Assembly (NCBI GenBank): GCA_028284415.1
Contig: JANQRU010000007.1
Span: 969,243-1,033,242, forward strand
DNA: 64,000 bases
Source of the DNA: Pyrinomonadaceae bacterium
GTDB taxonomy: Bacteria > Acidobacteriota > Blastocatellia > Pyrinomonadales > Pyrinomonadaceae
Direction: 5' to 3'
Shown: positions 7,123 through 19,811 of the stretch, one piece after another
How the letters are laid out: the number at the start of each line of letters is the position of its first letter
Numbering within the stretch: the first letter of the stretch is position 1
Notes under the pieces: generated by a model
Database searches by the model: none
Told to the model about the DNA's origin: nothing
The model's input: the letters and a program-made list of their open reading frames with translations, nothing else
Position numbers and translations under genes: made by a program

Positions 7123-7680
7123 TCAAACTTTCTTAACGGTATCACCGACCTTTACTGTTCCAGCTTCAATGACCTTTGCGTTTATACCTCTTAAATGCAA
7201 TTCCTTTCCAATCGGTGAATTTACGAATTTTACTGCATCAATACCAAAACGTTCTGTAAATTTTTTACAACCGTTGTGGGGAATTTCAGTTACTTCAACA
7301 ATTGCAGAGCCGATTTTCATGCGGCTTCCGGGCGGTAGGTTTTTATCGCTCAAATTCATATCAATATAAAGTTGATCCCCTGCAAGTTTCCAGCGATCTT
7401 TGTCTTGAGCGACGAGTGCAGCAGAGCGTGAATTCATAATGTTCAATTGCATATCAGGATGCCCGAAACCATCGTTTGTTCTCGAACTTCCGCGAGTTTT
7501 CCAGTTATCACCGATCAAACCAAGCTCCAGATCGAGTTTACCTTCCTCTAAAACTTCTCTTTCGTTTTCTGCGGGACGACAAACAATCATTTCCAAAATC
7601 CCTTCATCCAAAGGTGATTTTTTGATTTCATCAACTCCTGCCTCAAGTTCGTTCATAGTCAAATGTCTGACTTCTGCCAT
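7123..7680 (-). CDS. MOSC domain-containing protein (YiiM-like)
   Basis: Length of about 185 aa. The MOSC beta-barrel region has a conserved Cys (PHNGCKKFTERFG). It overlaps the upstream gene by 22 bp; the alternative start MNELEAG at 7656 removes the overlap. Confidence 0.6.
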   Translation of the reverse strand: MAEVRHLTMNELEAGVDEIKKSPLDEGILEMIVCRPAENEREVLEEGKLDLELGLIGDNWKTRGSSRTNDGFGHPDMQLNIMNSRSAALVAQDKDRWKLAGDQLYIDMNLSDKNLPPGSRMKIGSAIVEVTEIPHNGCKKFTERFGIDAVKFVNSPIGKELHLRGINAKVIEAGTVKVGDTVKKV

Positions 7681-8876
7681 CTAAATTGCTCTCTCCTTTT
7701 TGTAAAAGATAATTCCTCAACCGGAACTATTCGGAAGATTTTATCATCGCCCTGTTTTGTGTCACCACGCCCATCCCGATTTGAAGTTGAAAAATATATA
7801 TGACCAGCGGGGCTTACCGCAACCTCACGAATTCTTCCATACTTTTTCTTAAACAAATACTCTTGTGCGATGACCTTTCGCCCTTCGATTACAAGACGAA
7901 CCACAGCTTGCCCTTTTAACGCACCGAAAAAGAAATTGTTTCGATATGCTGGAAAAGCTTCGCCACGATAAAATGCTCCGCTCGCAGGTGCGACTGCGGG
8001 AGAATACTCAACCAGAGGCGTTTCCATACCCTTCTTTGTCATCTTATGCGAAATCTTTGCCCAGCCATAATTTTTCCCACGTTTGACCAAATTTATTTCA
8101 TCACCCCCAGTGCGTTTTTTAAACCACGAAACGCCATCAATAAAGCTCGGTCCGTGTTCGGTCTGAAACATCTCTTTTGTCTCGGGATGCCAATCCATAC
8201 CTTGAGCATTTCGATGCCCGTAAGACCAAATTTCAGGACGTGCGTTTTTAGTTTTGATAAAGGGATTATCTTCGGGAATCGTTCCATCGTCATTGAGTCG
8301 TAAAGTTTTCCCATTTATCGAACTCAATTTTTGAGCCGTCTTCTGCTTGGTTGCATCGCCTGTCGTTATGTAAAGTTTTTTATCAACAGGCGAAAAACCC
8401 AAACGTGTCCCCGCATGAAATTTTGCAGCAGGAATTCCTTCGATAATTGTCTTAGGATTTTCTAAGGCAGTGCCTGCTTCTTCATAACGGCTGACACGAA
8501 CAAATTTATCGCCGTCCTTCTCGTAAACATAGGCAAAATAAAGCCAACGGTTTTCTGTAAACTCAGGATGCAAGACCATGCCCATTAATCCCGTTTCGCT
8601 TGAAAGACGAACATCAGGCAAGGTATGAAGAGGCTTTTCCCTTAACTTCCCGTCTTTTTCTATCACACGAATTCTGCCCGGACGTTCGGTAAAGAAAACC
8701 CTTCCGTCGGGAGCAAAAGCAATTGACCAAGGAACTTCCAAATTTGTTGCTACCGTTTCAACCCTAAATTTCGGAGATTCTTTCGGCAAAGGCAAATCCT
8801 TATCATCTGCCGTCTGGCAGTTCACTAAAACAGGTAGTAAAGATAATAAAACAAAACTCAAAATCTTTTTTTTCAT
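7659..8876 (-). CDS. PQQ-dependent sugar dehydrogenase (soluble glucose/sorbosone dehydrogenase family)
   Basis: Signal peptide is present. It has beta-propeller GSDH motifs (GHRNAQGMDWHP, EHGP), and the 405-aa length is typical of the YliI-like family. Confidence 0.7.
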   Translation of the reverse strand: MKKKILSFVLLSLLPVLVNCQTADDKDLPLPKESPKFRVETVATNLEVPWSIAFAPDGRVFFTERPGRIRVIEKDGKLREKPLHTLPDVRLSSETGLMGMVLHPEFTENRWLYFAYVYEKDGDKFVRVSRYEEAGTALENPKTIIEGIPAAKFHAGTRLGFSPVDKKLYITTGDATKQKTAQKLSSINGKTLRLNDDGTIPEDNPFIKTKNARPEIWSYGHRNAQGMDWHPETKEMFQTEHGPSFIDGVSWFKKRTGGDEINLVKRGKNYGWAKISHKMTKKGMETPLVEYSPAVAPASGAFYRGEAFPAYRNNFFFGALKGQAVVRLVIEGRKVIAQEYLFKKKYGRIREVAVSPAGHIYFSTSNRDGRGDTKQGDDKIFRIVPVEELSFTKRREQFRWQKSDI

Positions 8877-8907
8877 AATTTCTCTGTGTATTTGGGGGGA
8901 GTAAACA

Positions 8908-10137
8908 TTATTTCAAACTTGCGTAAACCTTCCCTAAAAACTCATCAATCTTGTTGTTTGAAATCCAACGGGCAACGATCACCAAGTCATTTTTTCGGTC
9001 AATGTAAACCATATTTGTCCCATTTCCTAAAAAAGCAATCGTGCCTTCGGGTGCACTCGGGTACATTTTTTTGTCCGTGTTTACGAAGAAATTCATAAAC
9101 CCATAAGTTGGCTGCGGAACACTTGGAGTTTCTGCCATTTTTAAGAATTTCTTTGAAAGAATCCGTTTGTTTCTCCAAGTTCCTTCACGTTCAACTAATA
9201 AACCGAAACGAGCCATATCTCTGGCATTGATAAACATTCCGCCCCCCCAATGTCCGCCACCACTGACTGACTGCATTATCTGCCCGTCAATCAAAACATA
9301 GGAATTTTCATACCCGTGCCAACGCCATGTCTGTGATGCACCAATCTCGTCCATCAGATGTTTCTTTAAAACCTGTGGAAGTGGTTTTCGCCAAACATTC
9401 AAAGCAGTCAGAGCAAGTAAATTAACCCGAACATCATTGTATTCATAGACAGTTCCCGGATTATTTCTTTCGCGTGTCAGCCAAGTTCTGCGATCACGCG
9501 AAGGTCTGTCTGCCCAGTCGGGTTTGTTCCAGAGAGTTCCTTCCCAATCGCTGTTCTGTTGCAAAAGGTGTATCCAAGTAATTTTTTTGTTGTGTTCGCT
9601 TTCAAAGAGTTTGAGAAATTTTGATTTGCCAAATTTTTCAGCATCATCAAATCTTTGCATTGGATTATAAGCTGATACGGGAGCCATTTCTTTGTAAACA
9701 GGCACATCAAGATTTGGAATTAACTTGCGATCATAAGCCAAACCAACCGTTGCGGTTAAGAAACTTTTCGTAACCGAATGAGTCATATCAACCCGCATTG
9801 GCTCGCCCCATTCGGCAATGATATAACCATTGCGAATAATTATCCCGGTCATATCACCACGAAACTTAAACGGTCCGATGGCTTCGCCAAACGGCTCGCG
9901 TCCGAATGTCTGTGCTTGTCCAAGTTCTTGATCTCGCGGTGCTGTTGATTCATTTGCTTTAGCAAAATCAATCGCTTCTTTTAGTTTTTCTGCATCAAAC
10001 TTTGCACTTTCGGGTGTCTTTGTTTCCCATTTTTCTTTGGCTGGAAAATATGTGTTTTGAGCAAAAGCTGAAAAAGAAAAAGTTACAAAAACTAAAAGAA
10101 TATAATAAATGTTTTTTGGAAAATTCAATCTTTGCAT
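8908..10137 (-). CDS. Serine hydrolase, beta-lactamase/transpeptidase-like family
   Basis: Signal peptide is present. It carries an S-x-x-K active-site motif (SVTK) and overall class C beta-lactamase-like features. Confidence 0.6.
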   Translation of the reverse strand: MQRLNFPKNIYYILLVFVTFSFSAFAQNTYFPAKEKWETKTPESAKFDAEKLKEAIDFAKANESTAPRDQELGQAQTFGREPFGEAIGPFKFRGDMTGIIIRNGYIIAEWGEPMRVDMTHSVTKSFLTATVGLAYDRKLIPNLDVPVYKEMAPVSAYNPMQRFDDAEKFGKSKFLKLFESEHNKKITWIHLLQQNSDWEGTLWNKPDWADRPSRDRRTWLTRERNNPGTVYEYNDVRVNLLALTALNVWRKPLPQVLKKHLMDEIGASQTWRWHGYENSYVLIDGQIMQSVSGGGHWGGGMFINARDMARFGLLVEREGTWRNKRILSKKFLKMAETPSVPQPTYGFMNFFVNTDKKMYPSAPEGTIAFLGNGTNMVYIDRKNDLVIVARWISNNKIDEFLGKVYASLK

Positions 10138-10249
10138 ACTTTAAAATGGATTTATTTATTGAAATTAGTACCAATCATAATACAGCTAAATACCTTTATT
10201 ATAATCAACTGTTATATTAAAATATCTTAACAAAGCAAGGAGCTAGATT

Positions 10250-10807
10250 ATGAATAAAACTTTCTTCTCATTTATCTCAATAATTTTGTTTAGTCTCTGC
10301 ATATTCGGGCAAAAAACCAGTACGATATATGACTTCAGCGGAACTTGGGAACTAGATGAAAAAGCAAGTTTACTTACTAAAAAGCAAAGAGAAAAGACAA
10401 AAGACTACAAACTAATTATTAATGATAAAGGCAATAAAATACTAATTAATGTTAGTTATCTCTTGGAAAATGACAACTACGAAAAAAAGATTGTGTTAAA
10501 TGCCGATAATAGCGATGAAAAAAGTTTTGATTTTAAAAACGGAAAGCAAATACGCGAAATAAATTCAACAACTTACAGAAAAAAAAACGTTATTTACCGA
10601 AGTTATATTAGGAAAATGCCTTTTGGAAAAAAAAACACTCTAAACTTTAAAGTTACAGAAAAATACAAGCTCTCAAAAAAAGAAGATAAAATCACCCTAA
10701 CTATAAACGGCAAATTGATTTCCACATCCGATATTAGACTTTCTGAAGTCTTTTCTGGTAGCCAAATGTATACCAAAGAAAAATATGTTTTCCGCAAACA
10801 AAAATAA
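10250..10807 (+). CDS. Hypothetical secreted Lys-rich protein
   Basis: Signal peptide only. No recognisable domain. Confidence 0.45.
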   Translation: MNKTFFSFISIILFSLCIFGQKTSTIYDFSGTWELDEKASLLTKKQREKTKDYKLIINDKGNKILINVSYLLENDNYEKKIVLNADNSDEKSFDFKNGKQIREINSTTYRKKNVIYRSYIRKMPFGKKNTLNFKVTEKYKLSKKEDKITLTINGKLISTSDIRLSEVFSGSQMYTKEKYVFRKQK

Positions 10808-10833
10808 TCTACTTCTGGAGTCTAGTTATATTT

Positions 10834-11256
10834 TTATTCGATCTTAAACTCTTTGCTTTCCTTTAATTTACCGTTCAAAAATACATCTACGCGATAATCT
10901 CCAGTTGCCCAAATGCTTTTTGGCGAAGCTGTAAAAGCTACTCCGCTTTCGCCTTTTTTAGTTTTATATGAAGCTACGACCATCTTTGTATTAGGACGCA
11001 GACCTTTTGCTTTGACGGCGATAAAATTCATTTTGACTAACGTGGGTTTTTCAGAATTTAAATCAATATAGCAATAAATCGGAATATCTTTTGTTCCGAA
11101 GACCTCTAAATCTTCGATTATATTCCCTTGAGAATCTTTTTTGGCGAGTGATAATTTTGTTATCTTTACTTCTTCGTCATTTTTGTTTGGTGCGGTTTGT
11201 GCTTGAAAGCTGAAGCTTAATAAAAGACACAGCGATACTATTAAGACAATCTTCAT
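10834..11256 (-). CDS. Hypothetical secreted protein
   Basis: Signal peptide only. No recognisable domain. Confidence 0.45.
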   Translation of the reverse strand: MKIVLIVSLCLLLSFSFQAQTAPNKNDEEVKITKLSLAKKDSQGNIIEDLEVFGTKDIPIYCYIDLNSEKPTLVKMNFIAVKAKGLRPNTKMVVASYKTKKGESGVAFTASPKSIWATGDYRVDVFLNGKLKESKEFKIE

Positions 11257-11471
11257 TACTTTGCCTCCGTGAAAATTTTTATTTTTTGGAATTAAGGTTA
11301 AAAAAAGGTGTCAGAACGATTTGCAGTAATTGATGGTTTAATTCAAATATGAATCAGCTATCTTCAACCAAGTAATTACGGCGAAAGGTTCTGACTTGTT
11401 TTGTGGTTATTGCAACAACTAACTTAAAAGGTGCGGCAACTCTGGAATAGGTTGCATTTGAGCGAAAGATT

Positions 11472-12614
11472 TTACCTTATTTTCTTAAATATGGTGTGAA
11501 ATGCAGCAATTGTAAAAGGCTTGAGCGGAACGGTTTTCATTACACTAAAATCTTCTGTTAGAGAGGTGTCTTCGTTAAGAAATTTGAGAACCCTAGAGGC
11601 TTTGTTCTTTTTAAAAAGACATGTAAAAACATCGTCAATAGAATGTTTTTTATCTTGCATAACATTCAATAAAACACTATCGAGATACAATTTCCAATTC
11701 CTATGTTTGAGTTTCGGCTCTTGTCTTTTCTCTAAATCCTCTACCAATTTTTTCAGCTTTCTTTGAGTGCTTTTGAAGCTATACCCCGTCGAAGGTTTTA
11801 CAAAACCACCTGATGTACCGATTCTGATTATTTTTGAATCTTTAGTTTGCGTGTGAGGCTCATCAGACATAGGAATTATGCCGAATTCCGTTTCTTGGAC
11901 TGTGTAATTTTCAATTTGTAGGTTTTTGGAAACGTATATTCTTAAATTTTCCTCGTATTCTTCTCTTTCAATCAAATTATCCGAAAAAATCGTAAATTCA
12001 ATCAGTGCTTTGTTTTCCGAAAAGGGCAAAATGTAAATAAAACGGCACTCATCCATTTGTTCGATTCGAAAATCAAAAAGTGTCATTTCATCAGAATCAA
12101 AAACAGCATCTTCTGTTTCAATCACCCAACCTAAAAAATGTTGCCAAAGATTATGATATTTCGGATTATCATATTCTTTTCGTGAGAAGCTATCGAAAAT
12201 ATATTCATTTGCGGTAAATTCGCCTTTATCAGTTTTTACCGTTTTGTTTTCTACGGAAGAAATATCAGCCTGCAAGAATTTGAAGTTTGAATTTTGCTCG
12301 AGTTTTGATTTTACAAATTCATAAAAATCTATCGCTCGAATCATTTTGTATTGATATTCATCAAAATCCAAAAGTTCACTAAAATCTTGTGTTCCATGAA
12401 ACCAAAACTTATCCCAGCAACGAAAAATTATTTCTTCAAAATCGGATTTTCCATTTTCCCAAAAACACCAGGTGTGATCGTTTGAAGTTTTCTCATCGCG
12501 GTCAATTATGAGAATTTTTTTACTTTTGAGTGAGCTTTCATTCAAATAAAATCCAAGCGAAAGCCCTGCCATACCTCCACCTGCGATGATGTAGTCAAAA
12601 GATTTATCTTGCAC
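11472..12614 (-). CDS. Lycopene cyclase family flavoprotein (CrtY/CrtL-like)
   Basis: N-terminal FAD/NAD Rossmann motif DYIIAGGGMAGLSLGFYL. Its roughly 380-aa size and overall pattern resemble the lycopene beta-cyclase family. Confidence 0.6.
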   Translation of the reverse strand: MQDKSFDYIIAGGGMAGLSLGFYLNESSLKSKKILIIDRDEKTSNDHTWCFWENGKSDFEEIIFRCWDKFWFHGTQDFSELLDFDEYQYKMIRAIDFYEFVKSKLEQNSNFKFLQADISSVENKTVKTDKGEFTANEYIFDSFSRKEYDNPKYHNLWQHFLGWVIETEDAVFDSDEMTLFDFRIEQMDECRFIYILPFSENKALIEFTIFSDNLIEREEYEENLRIYVSKNLQIENYTVQETEFGIIPMSDEPHTQTKDSKIIRIGTSGGFVKPSTGYSFKSTQRKLKKLVEDLEKRQEPKLKHRNWKLYLDSVLLNVMQDKKHSIDDVFTCLFKKNKASRVLKFLNEDTSLTEDFSVMKTVPLKPFTIAAFHTIFKKIR

Positions 12615-14217: not shown

Positions 14218-15069
14218 ATGTCGAAAAGGCTTATACGAAACGTCAAAACGGGTGTCACGAAGACTTTGAAATCCAAAAAGATTGTAAAGAAATCACAGTC
14301 GCCATATATATTTCAAAACATTCCGCCCATAAACTTTTCCGACAAACGCTTTACCGTAAAAATTGCAGAGAACGCGGAAGAAGTAGAAGCAGCCTTACGA
14401 CTTCGATACAAAGTATTCAATATTGAGTTTGGTGAAGAAAAAGATACACCTTTCGGGATGGATGTTGATAAATACGACTACACGTCCCATCATCTGATCG
14501 TCAGAAAAAATGATACAAAAGAGGTAGTTGGAGTTTACCGTTTAAGAACATTAGAACTTGCCCAAACTGCCGATCAATTTTATTCAAATCAAGAGTTTAC
14601 ATTAGAAGATTTGTCCGTTGATGTTCTTAAAGATGCGATAGAAATCGGAAGAGCCTCAATTGCTAAAAACTATCGCCACAAAAATGTTCTGTTTCTGCTC
14701 TGGAAAGGTTTAGCCGAATATATCAAAGCCACAAACAAGCGTTATGTTTTCGGTTGTTGCTCATTATTTTCGCAAGACTACTCCGAAGGTTTAAGCACAT
14801 TTCATAAGCTTAAAAATGAAAATTACTTGTGCAATGACAATTTTGTTGAGGGGCAAAAAGAATTTGATTTTACAGATGAAGAAAAACTCTCCGCTAAAAT
14901 AAATGAAGAAATAGAACTTCCACAACTTTTTCGGCTTTATCTAAGAATCGGAGCAAAAGTTTGCAGTCCACCCGTCATCGACAGAAAATTTGGAACGATA
15001 GATTTCTTTGTAATCTTCGACATAGATAATCTCGACAGACGCTACCGAATGCTATTTTTTGGATTGTAA
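14218..15069 (+). CDS. GNAT-fold N-acyltransferase, OlsB/hemolysin-like family (PF13444-like)
   Basis: The 283-aa protein has a pattern typical of ornithine-lipid / lyso-lipid N-acyltransferases. Confidence 0.55.
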   Translation: MSKRLIRNVKTGVTKTLKSKKIVKKSQSPYIFQNIPPINFSDKRFTVKIAENAEEVEAALRLRYKVFNIEFGEEKDTPFGMDVDKYDYTSHHLIVRKNDTKEVVGVYRLRTLELAQTADQFYSNQEFTLEDLSVDVLKDAIEIGRASIAKNYRHKNVLFLLWKGLAEYIKATNKRYVFGCCSLFSQDYSEGLSTFHKLKNENYLCNDNFVEGQKEFDFTDEEKLSAKINEEIELPQLFRLYLRIGAKVCSPPVIDRKFGTIDFFVIFDIDNLDRRYRMLFFGL

Positions 15070-15092
15070 TGTCAGAACCGTCTGCGGTAGTC

Positions 15093-15394
15093 ATTAGTAT
15101 CTACACATCTTTGAAAACTCAATGTCTATTGACTTGTATTCAAGTTTTCTGAGTCGCCAACGGCGACAAACATTATAGCCTATGGTGCAGGCTAAAAGCC
15201 GAAACCATAGGAATTATTAATCAGTCAGTTGTGTCGCTGAAAGCGACAAACATCATTGAACATAGGTTGTTCGTCGCCTACAGCGACGCTATGTTTATTA
15301 CATTTCACCTAGCGATTCTCGCTAGGCTTTAGTGTTTGTCGCCGTTGGCGATAGACAACACAAAGCATCATGTCAAACTTGTGTAGATACTAAT
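15093..15394. mobile_element. MITE-like non-autonomous element / BIME-like REP cluster
   Basis: Perfect 15-bp terminal inverted repeats ATTAGTATCTACACA (15093-15107) and TGTGTAGATACTAAT (15380-15394). GCGGTAG direct repeats lie just outside both ends, at 15084-15090 and 15396-15402. Four internal GTCGC-N4-5-GCGAC(AAACA) hairpin units sit at about 15153, 15233, 15273 and 15338, the last an inverted copy of the first. The element lies between convergent genes. Confidence 0.6.
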
Positions 15395-15494
15395 AGCGGT
15401 AGCGAATGGTTTGAGTTAGTAAACTTGATACTTGATACTTAAAGTTCGAGTTCTCAAAGTTAAACTGCTCACAACCAAAAGCCATTCAGAAAGA

Positions 15495-16220
15495 TCAATG
15501 AAAAGTTTTCTCCTTGAAAGTAATCTCGCCATTCTCATCAATCAAAAGAATTGTTGAAGAGCGTGTTCCGTAAATAGGTGTTTCGATAAATATTGGGGAA
15601 AGAATTCTCTCTTTTTCCAATCCAATTCCCGTGTCGGGTAAATCTTTATCTTCAGCAAGAGTTTTATCGGCGAGGACTTCAAAAAACTTTTCTTCTTCAA
15701 ATTTATCTTGTGAAAGCATCTGAGTTAGAGCTTTTTTGCCACGAAGAACTTTTTGCCAAGGAGTATCTAACAAATGATTGCTTAGTCCATAAACTCCGCT
15801 TGAGAGCATTTTGATTTTCTCACTACAATTTGAGTAATACGCAATCTCTTGTTTTTCATCATTTAATTCGCCAACCAACAAATTAAATCCGGAAAATTTA
15901 TCTTTGTTAGATTCAATTTCTTTCAAATAATCTTTGCTTGAATCATTTCCTTTTAAGAAATTACTGACAAGATCGCCACGCGAAACTGTGCCTTTTGGTG
16001 AGTTTGGTTGGCGATAGTTTGTAACGGCGGCAAAACGTCCCGTGTCGGTCACACCTAACCAAGTTCCGCCACGAACCAAATCTCTACCTGCCAAAATGTT
16101 TGGAAAGTCCTGCCATTTCTGAGCGGCGGCAGTTGGTCTTTCATAAAATTCATCTCGATTCGCCAACAAAATCAGCGGATACTTCGGATGTTCTTGAAAT
16201 GCAAAAAAGATTACGCACAT
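15495..16220 (-). CDS. NRDE family protein (TANGO2-like)
   Basis: LANRDEFYERP motif is present. Family members typically start with MC..., so the start was set at MCVIFFAF (16220), 1 bp after the upstream stop. Confidence 0.7.
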   Translation of the reverse strand: MCVIFFAFQEHPKYPLILLANRDEFYERPTAAAQKWQDFPNILAGRDLVRGGTWLGVTDTGRFAAVTNYRQPNSPKGTVSRGDLVSNFLKGNDSSKDYLKEIESNKDKFSGFNLLVGELNDEKQEIAYYSNCSEKIKMLSSGVYGLSNHLLDTPWQKVLRGKKALTQMLSQDKFEEEKFFEVLADKTLAEDKDLPDTGIGLEKERILSPIFIETPIYGTRSSTILLIDENGEITFKEKTFH

Positions 16221-16221
16221 C

Positions 16222-18006
16222 TTAATTCTCAATCTGCTCGACGAGTCTTTTTTTCTCTTGTTTTTTTGAAGAATCCTTTTTCCAAAGATTTGAAAAAGTT
16301 ATTCTTACCAGCTCACTAAATTTCAAAGGTTTAGCTCCACTTTTGATATTTTCTACACCGATTTCAAAGGCAATCCGCCACTGGTCAAAAAGAATTCTGT
16401 AAGCACCTAAAAGATTATGTTTCGGATCATAAATGTTTGTTGATTCCGAACTTACGCCATTTAATTCAATTATTTTGAAATTTTCACCTCGCTTAAAATC
16501 TTCGACGGAGGTTGTTCGAACATCAAATCTCCCAAAATAAAAACCTTCAAAACCACCACATATCCCGTCAATTTTTTCTTCCAATTCTTTAGTATAAATC
16601 CATCCACCATCAAGAAAAATTGCTCCTCTTGAATGAGTTCCGATATTGATAATTTTTCTTTTTTCACCGTTTTTCAGGACTAATTCTAAGTCCTCCTCGT
16701 TTTGACTTAAATAATTTTCTGCCAAACAAACCGCTCGCTTATCATTTAGGATCAATTTCTCTAAAGTTGATTCTCCATCTCCTGTAACTTCGGGAAATTG
16801 CTTTTCCGTGATAGAAAAAATTTTGCCTTTTTCTCTGCTCGGATAGCGATAGTAAAAAACGCTGAACTCTTCTCCTTCAGCAAATTCCTGCAAGATCATA
16901 TCCTGATTTAGTTCAGAAACCCGCTCCTCTAATTCTTCTAAACTGCTGACAAATCCTGCGTCTTTTCCGCGTTCGCCAATGTCAGGTTTCAAAGCAATTG
17001 GAAATAACAGATCGTTTTCTTCAATAAACTTTTTAGCTTTTTCAAAGTTTGTTTTTGCTGACAAGTCCGATTTTAGAAGAGTGTGACTGAGCAAATATGG
17101 CTGAGCAGATTCCGAATCTCCTAAGCCCTGTAAAATTTCCTCTTTTGATTCTCCGATAAATCCACTCGCAAAAATTGCAGGATTTGTCGCTGTAAAAACG
17201 GTGATTCCTCTATGTTTAATCGAAAGCCAAAGAACATATAATGCAACGGGAAAATAAAAAACTTTTAGCGACCAGAATTCCCAATAAAAACGCTTTTTTA
17301 TCTGTCCCCAAAAGATTCTACGGCTTCGCCAATTTGTCAACTTAAGCCCGACTTTAATAATCAAAAACAAAGCTAAAACAAAAACGATCAAGCCGAAAAG
17401 AAAATGACTCTGGAAAAAAGGAATCTCAAAAAACTCCCTCCCAAGCCAAGCCGAACCACCAACTAAAATTGGTGTCCAAAAAGCCGTAGCTAAGAAGAAG
17501 AAAAGAGTAAATTTGATAAAGCTTGTTTGTAAAATCCCAGCTAAAACATAGGTTGGCAAACGCAAACCCGGTGTAAAACGGCTTAAAAAGACTGCCCACA
17601 GTCCGTACTTTTCAAGAAATCTTTTTGCCCTCTCAAGAGTTTTATCACTGATGAATCGTTTCACTATTTTTGAACGTAAAATTGCTGTTCCGCCAATTCG
17701 TCCGAAAAGATATAACAAAACATCTCCGACAAAAATCCCGACAAAACAAGCTCCTATTCCTAAAGCTAAACTGATGCGACCTTGAGCGGCGAGTGTTCCA
17801 GCTGTAAGGCAAGCAATGTCTTCGCTAAAAAATGTTGAAATAGCAAGAATTATAAAAATAGCGAGGGGACTAAATCTTTCGGTGGAAAGACTGTCTAAAT
17901 TATTTAAAGAACTAAAAAGTTCGGGATTGTAAAAATACAATCCCGAACACGTAAATACAATAATTATAATTCCCAGCCCGTAGGCTATTTTTTGAAAACT
18001 TCGCAT
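16222..18006 (-). CDS. DedA/VTT-domain membrane protein fused to a C-terminal ATP-grasp ligase domain
   Basis: The N-terminal half has the DedA/SNARE-associated pattern (FSEDIACLTAGTLAA...GDVLLYLFGR...GLWAVFLSRFTPGLR). The C-terminal half has ATP-grasp signatures: the loop LKPDIGERGKDAGFV, then EEFSVFYY, FGRFDV and IELNGVSSES. Start chosen at MRSFQKIAYG (18006); the track's longer start overlaps DoxX. Confidence 0.6.
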   Translation of the reverse strand: MRSFQKIAYGLGIIIIVFTCSGLYFYNPELFSSLNNLDSLSTERFSPLAIFIILAISTFFSEDIACLTAGTLAAQGRISLALGIGACFVGIFVGDVLLYLFGRIGGTAILRSKIVKRFISDKTLERAKRFLEKYGLWAVFLSRFTPGLRLPTYVLAGILQTSFIKFTLFFFLATAFWTPILVGGSAWLGREFFEIPFFQSHFLFGLIVFVLALFLIIKVGLKLTNWRSRRIFWGQIKKRFYWEFWSLKVFYFPVALYVLWLSIKHRGITVFTATNPAIFASGFIGESKEEILQGLGDSESAQPYLLSHTLLKSDLSAKTNFEKAKKFIEENDLLFPIALKPDIGERGKDAGFVSSLEELEERVSELNQDMILQEFAEGEEFSVFYYRYPSREKGKIFSITEKQFPEVTGDGESTLEKLILNDKRAVCLAENYLSQNEEDLELVLKNGEKRKIINIGTHSRGAIFLDGGWIYTKELEEKIDGICGGFEGFYFGRFDVRTTSVEDFKRGENFKIIELNGVSSESTNIYDPKHNLLGAYRILFDQWRIAFEIGVENIKSGAKPLKFSELVRITFSNLWKKDSSKKQEKKRLVEQIEN

Positions 18007-18016
18007 TAAAAAAAAC

Positions 18017-18403
18017 TTAGAGCGAATCTCCGATAATTGGTAACTCCTGACGATTAATATAAAGCAAGATAGCACTTGAAACAAATACGGTCACCGCCAA
18101 GCCGAAAAGGGCACCACCATCGCCTGCGTGGGAGATTCCGAGTGTTGTAAAGTGGCTCATAATTGCTCCTGCCATTGTTCCCAGAGCTATCAGAGCTCCG
18201 AGCCAAGTTGTTTTCGGAATTAAAACTAGAATAATTGCAATTAGTTCAACAACCCCGGTTCCTATTCTCATCAGAGCCTCGTTTTCACCCGCCAATGTTG
18301 TAAAAAGTTCTACAGATTCAGAAGCCCCTGTAAATTTAAAAAATAAAGTTTGTCCTAAAATTACTGCTATTAAAATCCTCAATACCCAAGCAAATATTTT
18401 CAT
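18017..18403 (-). CDS. DoxX family membrane protein
   Basis: Length of 128 aa with four TM segments and a DoxX-like N-terminus. Confidence 0.6.
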   Translation of the reverse strand: MKIFAWVLRILIAVILGQTLFFKFTGASESVELFTTLAGENEALMRIGTGVVELIAIILVLIPKTTWLGALIALGTMAGAIMSHFTTLGISHAGDGGALFGLAVTVFVSSAILLYINRQELPIIGDSL

Positions 18404-18420
18404 TTGGTTAGCCCTTCCCT

Positions 18421-19041
18421 TTAGTTCAATAAATTGGATTCCGTTCCGTGGGATTTATTTCCCAAAGAACCTTGTTTTTGTTCATTTTCCGCCCAATACT
18501 GCAAGGTCGAAGGGGCAACTCCGAAACCTTTTCCGACATTAAAACCCAGCAATGCAAGCTTATCAGCAATCAAAGCGTAATGATGTAAAGTATGACTATG
18601 CAAAAATTCAAGCTCCCTCAAAACACTCGAATCACACCATTGTTCGGATATTTCAGGATTATCAGGAGATTCCTCTAATCTCACAGAAACCTTTTTGCAA
18701 CCAATATCTACTGGTAAATTACATAACTCTTCAATGACAAAATCGAAACGCGAAATGGCATATCTTCGGTCTTCTTCAACCCGCAAATCTCTTTCGCGGC
18801 GGTTGTAATCAATTTTTCCGCTTGCCAATCCTCGTAAAAAGTTTAAAACAAAATCCAGATTGTGCCTGAAATGACTTCCAACACAGGCTTTTCCCTCAGC
18901 TTCGGGAGTTACATAAAGCTCCTCATCTATTTCATTGATAAGCTTTACGCCCTGTCGCAAGATTGCTATGCAACGTGCCGTCAAAGGATTTTGTAATTCT
19001 GTTTTTGCTTTAACTTCTCGCAATTTTTCGCTCTCAAACAT
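18421..19041 (-). CDS. DinB_2/YfiT-like putative metal-dependent hydrolase or thiol transferase
   Basis: His-rich motifs GSHFRHNLD and FLHSHTLHHY are arranged as in the DinB_2 four-helix-bundle His triad. Assigned with low certainty. Confidence 0.35.
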   Translation of the reverse strand: MFESEKLREVKAKTELQNPLTARCIAILRQGVKLINEIDEELYVTPEAEGKACVGSHFRHNLDFVLNFLRGLASGKIDYNRRERDLRVEEDRRYAISRFDFVIEELCNLPVDIGCKKVSVRLEESPDNPEISEQWCDSSVLRELEFLHSHTLHHYALIADKLALLGFNVGKGFGVAPSTLQYWAENEQKQGSLGNKSHGTESNLLN

Positions 19042-19172: not shown

Positions 19173-19811
19173 ATGAAGAAATTTGTAGTTACAATTTTGT
19201 TAATTATTTGTTTTTTGACTGGGTTTGTTTTTGGAAAGCAGGATGCAGTCGAAAAAACTAGAGCTTTAGTTAATGAAATTGTGACTAAATCTTATCCCGA
19301 AATTAAACTTGAAAAAATCAGAATCAAAACTTTTAAGAGCAATTCAAATTATTTCAAAGCACGTTTTTCCTACACGAGGTTTTTTACTTTTCAAAAAATG
19401 CGTCATCTTCTTTACGTCAATCCTTCTGTCTTTGAAAAAGGTGCTCCAGGAGAAGGAATACGCGGGATTGTAGCTCATGAACTTGCACACATTTTATATT
19501 ACACAGAGAAAAATAGGTTTGAATTGCTTGGTTTAGCGAGTCTTGCTTCAAAAAGCTTTACAACAAAGTTTGAACGCAGAGCCGACCTTGAAGCAATTGC
19601 CAGAGGCTATGGCGAAGGGCTTATAAAATATAGAGAATGGCTCTACAAAAATGTACCTGCTAGTAAATTAGATAACAAAAAACGGGATTATTTTACGCCC
19701 GAAGAAATTAGACTTTTAATTCCTGCGTTAAATAAAAACCCGGATTTGCTTGATAAATTAAAAGATGATGTGCCATTGAATCTGGCAGAAACTGAAAGAG
19801 CTGTGCAGTAA
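19173..19811 (+). CDS. Secreted putative zinc metallopeptidase (HExxH)
   Basis: Signal peptide and a HELAH motif. Family not resolved. Confidence 0.4.
   Translation: MKKFVVTILLIICFLTGFVFGKQDAVEKTRALVNEIVTKSYPEIKLEKIRIKTFKSNSNYFKARFSYTRFFTFQKMRHLLYVNPSVFEKGAPGEGIRGIVAHELAHILYYTEKNRFELLGLASLASKSFTTKFERRADLEAIARGYGEGLIKYREWLYKNVPASKLDNKKRDYFTPEEIRLLIPALNKNPDLLDKLKDDVPLNLAETERAVQ

Follow-up and report, generated by a model that had tools for sequence, protein, structure and literature searches.

The window analyzed here, a 64,000-nucleotide stretch of a Pyrinomonadaceae bacterium genome (contig JANQRU010000007.1, positions 969,243–1,033,242 of the forward strand), carries on its minus strand, at 15495–19041, four genes reading in one direction with successive gaps of 17, 10 and 1 nucleotides (nt), the third of which encodes a fusion between a VTT (DedA) membrane domain and an ATP-grasp ligase. 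Together with a convergent OlsB-like N-acyltransferase gene and a divergent gene for an HExxH protein, these four genes form one conserved gene cluster. On balance, we favor the view that its ATP-grasp module works on the OlsB/OlsF aminolipid pathway, as an accessory module for N-acyl amino acid lipids of the ornithine-lipid type. This tie is the best supported because the linkage spans split OlsB/OlsA genes as well as fused OlsF, extends over Acidobacteriota, Vibrionaceae and alphaproteobacterial-looking contigs, and holds down to a three-gene operon. The cluster comprises the following features, in window coordinates.

18421–19041, minus strand: gene 1, a putative metalloenzyme of the DinB superfamily (DinB_2-like), 206 residues (open reading frame and orthologue profiles).
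18017–18403, minus strand: gene 2, a small integral membrane protein of the DoxX/MauE family, 128 residues (Pfam).
16222–18006, minus strand: gene 3, the VTT(DedA)::ATP-grasp fusion, 594 residues (ATG at 18006; homologues; AlphaFold2 model).
17332–17874, minus strand: VTT/DedA membrane domain, fusion residues ~45–225 (PF09335).
16282–17301, minus strand: juxtamembrane helix with WEFW, then the ATP-grasp ligase domain, fusion residues ~236–575 (Foldseek and profile against the PDB).
15495–16220, minus strand: gene 4, a TANGO2/NRDE-family protein starting MCVIFF from an ATG at 16220, 241 residues (PF05742).
14218–15069, plus strand: convergent OlsB-family N-acyltransferase, 283 residues (PF13444).
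19173–19811, plus strand: divergent HExxH protein of secreted type (orf212), 212 residues (motif and signal-peptide-like N-terminus).
15070–15494, no strand: 425-nt intergenic spacer separating the ends of the convergent genes (nested inverted repeats).

These coordinates bear out the four co-directional genes with 1–17-bp gaps described in a first-pass annotation, which a model had made from the sequence alone, and both motifs quoted there for the fusion, LKPDIGERGKDAGFV and ELNGVSSES, are found in the translation. The same annotation gave the fusion 595–620 residues: the fusion itself stands, and its length is revised to 594 residues. The longest reading of gene 3 runs from a TTG at 18084 to 16222 (620 residues). 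Because this reading overlaps DoxX and because the identical database entry (P0001, 100% identity) has 594 residues, the true start is almost certainly the ATG at 18006. Within the gene, at 17919–17948 of the window on the minus strand, a run of TTTTT follows a perfect stem of 13 bp (GTTCGGGATTGTA...TACAATCCCGAAC). This element lies ~58 nt past the start codon, where the N-terminal segment is poorly conserved, and could act as an attenuator or pause site or be a chance occurrence. In a scan of one genome per species, the nearest relatives of the window belong to the Acidobacteriota, class Blastocatellia.

We examined gene neighborhoods in 90 related loci, 80 of them from that scan (nearly all Acidobacteriota) and 10 from further contigs. 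Neighbors were detected by tblastn and then with hidden Markov models (HMMs) built from the window's neighbors, and the counts are minimal since several loci are short contigs. The strongest signal is the link to an OlsB-type acyltransferase, a gene that the first-pass annotation had mentioned only in passing: an OlsB-like N-acyltransferase or OlsF lies in the flanks of the ATP-grasp gene in 57 of the 90 loci. The ATP-grasp gene also has nearby a DinB-like gene in 50 loci, DoxX in 49 (Vibrio operons included), TANGO2 in 33 and a divergent NRDE gene in 19 (TANGO2 and NRDE together, 52), and a PlsC-type OlsA in 32. An alpha/beta-hydrolase, usually fused, is found in 40 loci, and HExxH orthologues occur in 18, usually directly after the fusion gene. 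The set thus recurs, and the four genes are a conserved unit.

At least five different gene orders and orientations surround the ATP-grasp gene. In the arrangements below, > and < denote the plus and minus strands of the locus, ATPG denotes ATP-grasp and ABH alpha/beta-hydrolase.

Window type: DinB> DoxX> VTT::ATPG> TANGO2> <OlsB.
Second type: OlsB> OlsA> DinB> NRDE> ABH::VTT::ATPG> HExxH> <DoxX.
Third type: <OlsB <HExxH ABH::VTT::ATPG> DinB> DoxX>.
Split type (locus L085): OlsA and OlsB on one strand; DoxX, DinB, VTT, NRDE and ATP-grasp on the other.
Metagenomic contigs L087 and L088: a minimal three-gene operon of ATP-grasp, OlsB and OlsA.
Loci L089 and L090: stand-alone ATP-grasp with DoxX, DinB and NRDE.

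The neighbors of the minimal operon (hemE, hemH, rho, mnmE, secB, Tim44 and mltA) appear to resemble an alphaproteobacterial origin region. Further genes recur around the clusters. A pair consisting of an HbpS-like/cupin protein and an SGL (SMP-30/gluconolactonase-like) protein is found within a few kilobases of the cluster in three distantly related contigs (L082, 3157–5757; L085, 9786–12332; L089, 944–3470). L085 and L089 share an LtrA-family membrane protein, and L089 and L090 share a Ferric_reduct+Rieske protein. An acyl-CoA dehydrogenase gene adjoins both the cluster of a Pyrinomonadaceae contig (L082, 11939–13081) and the fusion gene of Azospirillum sp. B510 (L091, 4886–6064).

The convergent gene of the window matches PF13444 (Acetyltransf_5) with 90.1 bits, confirming the OlsB-type aminolipid N-acyltransferase that had been placed on the other side of the spacer. 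It stays below the cutoffs of the NCBIfam equivalogs NF052554 (138 bits, E = 4.6e-40, versus 350) and NF052555 (126 bits versus 320). Because these scores lie below the ornithine-specific equivalog cutoffs, the window protein may act on an amino acid other than ornithine. The spacer contains nested inverted repeats at 15093–15114/15373–15394 (22 nt), 15154–15182/15323–15351 (29 nt) and 15233–15252/15268–15287 (20 nt), together with four GTCGCC-N3-GGCGAC hairpins, and terminator-like hairpins are present. It has the inverted repeats of a miniature inverted-repeat transposable element, its earlier designation, which stays tentative, as no second copy of the repeat or hairpin motifs occurs in the 64-kb window. 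The spacer may be a bidirectional terminator.

To cover cultured organisms, we searched a plasmid and chromid collection with tblastn and found the ATP-grasp family in Vibrio, Salinivibrio, Photobacterium, Paracoccus, Azospirillum and Variovorax. Vibrio aquimaris, V. vulnificus and V. splendidus carry a tight seven-gene operon with the order VTT, ATP-grasp, DinB-like, NRDE/TANGO2, YHS, DoxX and OlsF, whose terminal gene encodes a bifunctional OlsF-type synthase of 581–585 residues; UniRef labels some homologues of this synthase L-ornithine N(alpha)-acyltransferase. In Salinivibrio kushneri the annotation reads VTT, 'D-alanine--D-alanine ligase', DinB family and NRDE family. Paracoccus denitrificans PD1222 has ATP-grasp (PDEN_RS24485) with an alpha/beta-hydrolase (PDEN_RS25810), and VTT (PDEN_RS24475) on the opposite strand, and Azospirillum sp. 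B510 has the VTT::ATP-grasp fusion. Among acetic acid bacteria in this collection, the one homologue found was a distant one from Komagataeibacter (26% identity), on a plasmid whose gene context was uninformative. The YHS gene that stands between NRDE and DoxX in the Vibrio operons encodes a small secreted protein with a metal-binding YHS domain (L095, 9354–9791; L096, 7089–7526; L097, 7097–7534), and the Nevskia cluster is closely preceded by two YHS genes (L083, 4541–5543); the window has no counterpart. Transposase genes (DDE_Tnp_1, Transposase_mut, Y1_Tnp and rve) border the V. vulnificus operon on both sides (L096, 1–3417 and 9860–16235), which suggests that the whole cluster can move horizontally.

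The Vibrio operons connect the module to an experimentally characterized enzyme. The V. cholerae OlsF homologue VCA0646 (581 residues) has been shown experimentally to be an ornithine-lipid synthase that is induced at low salinity (PMC12186959). It is the last gene of a putative four-gene operon, VCA0649–VCA0646, whose upstream gene functions are not discussed in that study (PMC12186959). The ~2 kb of the V. cholerae operon upstream of VCA0646 fit in size the NRDE, YHS, DoxX and OlsF arrangement of the other Vibrio operons, and by synteny VCA0649–VCA0647 are probably NRDE, YHS and DoxX.

The fusion is authentic and widespread. Homologues form at least 1,445 clusters at 90% identity in a search of 5.8 billion proteins at E ≤ 1e-3, so that the combination of domains, described in the first-pass annotation as uncommon, is not uncommon within its clade. 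The best 120 homologues, mostly from Pyrinomonadaceae and other Blastocatellia, share the architecture of the window protein at 51–77% identity (the identical P0001 aside) and 84–100% query coverage, and 18 of them have an extra N-terminal alpha/beta-hydrolase domain. A frameshift artefact, considered in the first-pass annotation, is rejected: the open reading frame is unbroken, the best 120 homologues cover the query with the same architecture, and where VTT and ATP-grasp are split, the genes stay linked, adjoining in the Vibrionaceae operons and lying within one or two genes of each other elsewhere (L085 and L092).

A representative library contains 2,729 clusters matching the ATP-grasp domain at E ≤ 1e-3. 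Among the 150 best representatives at 50% identity, the prevailing architectures are VTT::ATPG (62) and ABH::VTT::ATPG (57), followed by ATPG alone (19), ABH::ATPG (5), TANGO2::ATPG (1; P0172) and TANGO2::ABH::VTT::ATPG (1; P0255), with split or duplicated HMM hits in the remaining 5. In both TANGO2 fusions, the TANGO2 part occupies the extreme N-terminus and its first residues are MC, which is exactly what a free N-terminal cysteine nucleophile requires. The ATP-grasp protein is thus the hub of a protein set that evolution repeatedly links and fuses.

The C-terminal half of the fusion models as a complete ATP-grasp domain, in agreement with the first-pass annotation. An alignment profile compared with the PDB matched D-Ala-D-Ala ligase (Ddl, E = 1.2e-5), a carbamoyl-phosphate-synthase-like protein and cyanophycin synthetases. 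The alignment with the cyanophycin synthetase CphA2 passes through the E-x-N metal motif, where IELN pairs with iiEiN of CphA2; K340-P-D-x-G-E-R-G pairs with the vvKP..G segment of Ddl and CphA, and the GDGxSTLEELI insertion typical of cyanophycin synthetases is present in the profile alignment. The AlphaFold2 model of the fusion (mean predicted local distance difference test score of 80) yielded 270 Foldseek matches in the PDB at E ≤ 1e-3, and the top 50 are all ATP-grasp ligases, foremost cyanophycin synthetases (7e-9 to 5e-8, with 7ta5 and 7wac at 7e-9 to 9e-9), GshAB (3ln6) and many Ddl. The modeled domain thereby has a confirmed ATP-grasp fold, its nearest counterparts being the cyanophycin-synthetase G domain, GshAB and Ddl. 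The NCBIfam models nearest to this half, all of them weak matches, are those for cyanophycin synthetase, CofF and an archaeal Ddl-like ligase, and the homologues P0149, P0181, P0201, P0127, P0129, P0143 and P0166 pass the Pfam ATP-grasp threshold.

In an alignment of 27 sequences, K340, G344, E345, R346, G347, Q373, E374, R493, D495, E514 and N516 are invariant. Two further motifs, WEFW (242–245) and NPxI..GFxGESK (275–288), are likewise invariant and are lacking in ordinary ATP-grasp enzymes, and stand-alone ATP-grasp proteins of the family retain the hydrophobic helix and a WEFW-type motif. Because the juxtamembrane helix is invariant and is kept in the stand-alone enzymes, and because the domain is found fused to VTT, hydrolase and TANGO2 partners, the substrate would reside in the membrane. 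The cyanophycin-synthetase G domain, GshAB, Ddl and RimK act on an N-substituted amino acid, whose C-terminal alpha-carboxylate they activate and join to an amino compound; by analogy, the fusion ATP-grasp is predicted to catalyze a carboxylate–amine ligation, probably through an acyl-phosphate.

The same kinship could be read as pointing to a soluble substrate, since Ddl, GshAB and CphA use soluble amino acids and peptides. The ATP-grasp would then make or modify a soluble amino compound, such as a dipeptide or a modified ornithine or lysine, which the OlsB-like enzyme N-acylates afterward, the tether just positioning the enzyme. The order of the minimal operon, with ATP-grasp before OlsB and OlsA, fits this route, as does the sub-cutoff score of the window OlsB-like protein, which may use a substrate other than ornithine. 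However, an enzyme with a soluble substrate would have no obvious use for an invariant juxtamembrane helix or for fusion to VTT or to lipid-type hydrolases, and in Vibrio the partner is a member of the OlsF family, to which the V. cholerae synthase of plain ornithine lipid also belongs. We regard synthesis of a head-group precursor as quite unlikely.

The membrane part of the fusion matches the VTT family PF09335 with 63.6 bits (cutoff 33.9, E = 3.2e-17). In Vibrio and Salinivibrio, VTT is a separate adjacent gene, and it is a separate gene in L085 too. The loops at residues 101–142 and 225–245 of the fusion are rich in Lys and Arg, and in the AlphaFold2 model the hydrophobic stretch 246–262 forms one helix with residues 226–245. 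Because of these charged loops, the positive-inside rule would place the ATP-grasp domain in the cytoplasm, provided that 246–262 is interfacial and not membrane-spanning. DedA/VTT proteins are thought to move lipids.

The best NCBIfam match of the VTT part is the undecaprenyl-phosphate transporter UptA (NF052604), and it brings into play a general envelope or stress module, in which the DedA-type domain would recycle undecaprenyl phosphate or maintain membrane homeostasis and the ATP-grasp would modify a peptidoglycan or polyprenol-linked precursor, the aminolipid genes being neighbors only through co-regulation under stress, for example at low phosphate or low salinity. That ATP-grasp ligases act on peptidoglycan precursors (the Ddl matches) and that several proteobacterial loci have no adjacent aminolipid synthase are compatible with it. 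Yet the UptA match reaches just 59.4 bits against a cutoff of 250 (NF008102, 36 against 236), no cell-wall gene recurs in the neighborhoods, and the fusion partners are TANGO2 and alpha/beta-hydrolase, not Mur or Pbp enzymes. The linkage to OlsB, OlsA and OlsF, moreover, outlasts repeated rearrangement across phyla, down to the three-gene operon. Such a module is, in our judgment, decidedly unlikely.

Gene 4 is a full-length TANGO2 homologue (PF05742, 278 bits, 1.5e-82, span 5–245). Residues 1–239 align with the human TANGO2 structures 8sv7 (E = 5.2e-46) and 9bwa, including Cys2, NRDEF, GLSN and PWxK. Among the orthologues from the clusters, NRDE is present in 32 of 32 and the MC start in 30, the other two having mis-called starts. 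A 2026 crystallographic study proposed the Cys2, NRDEF, GLSN and PWxK positions as the active center of a cysteine N-terminal-nucleophile (Ntn) hydrolase acting on fatty-acid derivatives, with the substrate unknown (PMC13044924). Gene 4 encodes a putative cysteine Ntn amidase or acyltransferase.

A rival reading of the module is lipid turnover. TANGO2 and the alpha/beta-hydrolase might dismantle lipids of the ornithine-lipid type, and the ATP-grasp might re-ligate the released fatty or amino acid, or cyclize ornithine to a lactam, so that the cluster would remodel lipids or exchange head groups and create no new lipid class. Cysteine Ntn enzymes such as bile-salt hydrolase and isopenicillin-N acyltransferase do hydrolyze and transfer N-acyl groups, TANGO2 has been proposed to use fatty-acid derivatives (PMC13044924), the hydrolase domain is fused in ~40% of the family representatives, and remodeling would account for the lack of any reported extended ornithine lipid. 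Set against this, no ATP-grasp enzyme is known to activate the carboxylate of a fatty acid or to build an ornithine lactam on a lipid, and the window and the other loci of its type (type A) are devoid of the hydrolase. We therefore consider turnover very unlikely as the role of the ATP-grasp module.

Gene 1 by itself has no match in Pfam, NCBIfam or the PDB. Its orthologues do: of 17 (34–51% identity to the window copy), 13 match PF12867 DinB_2 (best 8.9e-8) and 9 match PF05163 DinB, and their profile matches the 'DinB-like protein' 3dka in the PDB (E = 0.0036). Histidines H60, H150, H153 and H154 are invariant in the 17 sequences and are candidate metal ligands. Gene 2 passes two Pfam cutoffs narrowly (PF07291 MauE, 28.1 bits versus 27; PF07681 DoxX, 26.5 versus 23.6). 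The HExxH protein, divergent from gene 1, has the motif HELAH and a signal-peptide-like N-terminus, and belongs to no Pfam or NCBIfam family.

Thiol transferases of the DinB_2 family and the DoxX redox complex are established, and the first-pass annotation had offered a low-molecular-weight thiol conjugate as one possible product. In a membrane thiol or redox pathway of this kind, a GshB-like ATP-grasp would ligate a thiol compound (for example, cysteine), the DinB_2 protein would be an S-transferase and DoxX a thiol oxidoreductase, the product being a low-molecular-weight or lipid-anchored thiol. The GshAB ATP-grasp domain is indeed among the top structural matches, DinB-like and DoxX are linked nearly as tightly as OlsB, and in Vibrio and Nevskia the cluster is accompanied by a YHS metal-binding protein. 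But GshAB is no better a match than CphA or Ddl, no gene of cysteine or sulfur metabolism recurs in the clusters, and the minimal operon dispenses with both DinB and DoxX. Our analysis added no evidence for this pathway, for which the argument is one of family-level analogy for DinB_2 and DoxX alone, and we deem it highly improbable.

For the aminolipid assignment, the pathway that we infer, from its substrates and ligation polarity to the translocation of the lipid and the parts played by TANGO2, DinB and DoxX, is as follows. The OlsB-like enzyme would produce an N-(3-hydroxyacyl) amino acid, and the ATP-grasp domain, at the cytoplasmic face, would phosphorylate a carboxylate, in all likelihood the alpha-carboxylate that is free in the lipid head group if the analogy with its closest relatives holds. 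The activated carboxylate would then react with an amine, either an amino acid or a taurine-like compound, to give an extended head group, and the fused DedA-type VTT domain would hold, present or translocate the lipid. TANGO2 would edit or turn over amide bonds, and where relatives carry the fused alpha/beta-hydrolase, that domain may act on ester bonds. The DinB-like protein and DoxX would contribute a further metal- or redox-dependent step.

The head-group alpha-carboxylate is proposed as the target because the closest enzymes activate a C-terminal alpha-carboxylate and because the amidation in cerilipin hits the same position: taurine is transferred there onto the ornithine carboxyl group in an ATP-dependent reaction that is known biochemically, its gene being unknown (PMC12971839). 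In the aminolipid review literature, no enzyme is given for the step that adds serine in serine-glycine lipids. Specific amidation of the head-group alpha-carboxylate is a tentative proposal, possible rather than probable. More specific still, and unlikely as a whole, is the idea that the module adds a second amide-linked residue, giving a lipodipeptide or cerilipin-like head group, and that the TANGO2 orthologue is a cysteine Ntn amidase or transacylase of N-acyl amino-acid lipids. The first-pass annotation had envisaged modification of a membrane-bound small molecule. In the form of an amino-acid lipid head group this idea gains from the OlsB/OlsF linkage; in the MprF sense of an ester on a phospholipid it does not, since the linked synthases make N-acyl amino-acid lipids.

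Several observations weigh against the aminolipid assignment or parts of it. No OlsB or OlsF lies within the flanks in 33 of the 90 loci, several of these being short contigs, and no aminolipid synthase adjoins the module in Paracoccus denitrificans, Azospirillum, Salinivibrio or Nevskia. In the window, tblastn found neither an OlsA-type O-acyltransferase nor an alpha/beta-hydrolase. The Pfam model RimK stays sub-threshold on the window fusion (17.3 bits versus a cutoff of 21, E = 0.004), the ATP-grasp has an atypical N-terminal subdomain, and lipid flipping by the VTT domain is an assumption carried over from other DedA proteins. The polarity could also be reversed, a side-chain amine of the lipid being the acceptor instead of its carboxylate the donor. 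Finally, extended ornithine lipids have not been reported in Vibrio (PMC12186959), and a taxonomic paper on Chloracidobacterium, including its Blastocatellia comparison table, lists no aminolipid (PMC12816986).

Elsewhere in the window, genes unrelated to the cluster at 7659–12614 encode a glucose/sorbosone dehydrogenase (7659–8876), a beta-lactamase-family protein (8908–10137) and a lycopene cyclase (11472–12614). The 64-kb window contains neither a tRNA nor an Rfam match.

The individual parts belong to known superfamilies; their association as a proposed accessory aminolipid module is previously undescribed. Literature searches that paired either DedA or ornithine lipid with ATP-grasp, or that looked for TANGO2, DedA, DoxX or NRDE together with ornithine lipid or OlsF, returned no paper describing it, and two recent aminolipid reviews do not mention it. 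Ornithine-lipid synthases are known, and we know of no ligase, transporter or amidase tied to them. A conserved membrane ATP-grasp beside OlsBA or OlsF therefore offers a concrete class of candidates for orphan ATP-dependent head-group amidation, and if the addition of a second residue proves true, the long-missing ATP-dependent carboxyl ligase of ornithine lipids will have been identified. A natural fusion of VTT to a lipid-directed enzyme would likewise help to define the cargo of DedA/VTT proteins.

The consequences reach beyond bacterial lipids. Loss of TANGO2 causes severe metabolic disease in humans, and to our knowledge a biochemical function has been established neither for the human protein nor for the homologue described here. 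The operon and fusion context of TANGO2 points to N-acyl amide lipids as a testable class of substrates, for which Vibrio and Paracoccus denitrificans PD1222 provide genetically tractable settings. If TANGO2 does act as an amidase or transacylase here, its family would gain a first biochemical activity, and bacteria would offer a model of the human TANGO2 deficiency gene.

Comparison with known systems sets the cluster apart from each of them while revealing what it shares. With the cyanophycin-synthetase G domain, GshAB, Ddl and RimK, the ATP-grasp domain has in common the fold, the ATP-binding Lys, the Gly-rich loop and the E-x-N metal site, and with cyanophycin synthetases also the GDGxSTLEELI insertion; identity is, however, just 10–20%, the usual N-terminal subdomain is replaced by the juxtamembrane helix with WEFW and NPxI..GFxGESK, and the enzyme is tethered to the membrane or fused. 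With the DedA family (UptA/PetA-type lipid transporters; eukaryotic VMP1/TMEM41B), the fusion clearly shares the PF09335 VTT domain, but the scores of this domain are far under the UptA and DedA equivalog cutoffs, and fusion to an enzyme domain has not been described for characterized DedA proteins. Gene 4 is homologous over its full length to human TANGO2 (8sv7, 9bwa; E = 5e-46) and keeps the Cys2, NRDE(F), GLSN and PWxK positions, whereas it is bacterial, encoded in an operon beside lipid enzymes and, in some relatives, fused to ATP-grasp.

Relative to the ornithine-lipid pathway (OlsBA or OlsF; the OlsC/D/E hydroxylases, the OlsG methylase and the cerilipin taurine transferase), the genes of the module adjoin OlsB/OlsA or OlsF homologues, yet VTT, ATP-grasp, DinB-like, DoxX and TANGO2 are not among the described Ols genes, and the window OlsB-like protein falls under the OlsB equivalog cutoff. 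Membership in the MprF family is rejected, as there are no shared domains and Pfam detects in the fusion just VTT and a weak RimK. The two systems are not homologous: an ATP-grasp, predicted to use ATP and an acyl-phosphate, stands here in place of a tRNA-dependent transferase, a DedA/VTT domain in place of the MprF flippase, and synthases of N-acyl amino-acid lipids, instead of phosphatidylglycerol, are linked to it. They nevertheless follow the same design logic, with a cytoplasmic head-group-modifying domain and a lipid-translocating membrane domain in one protein and, in both, a hydrolase able to reverse the modification encoded or fused alongside.

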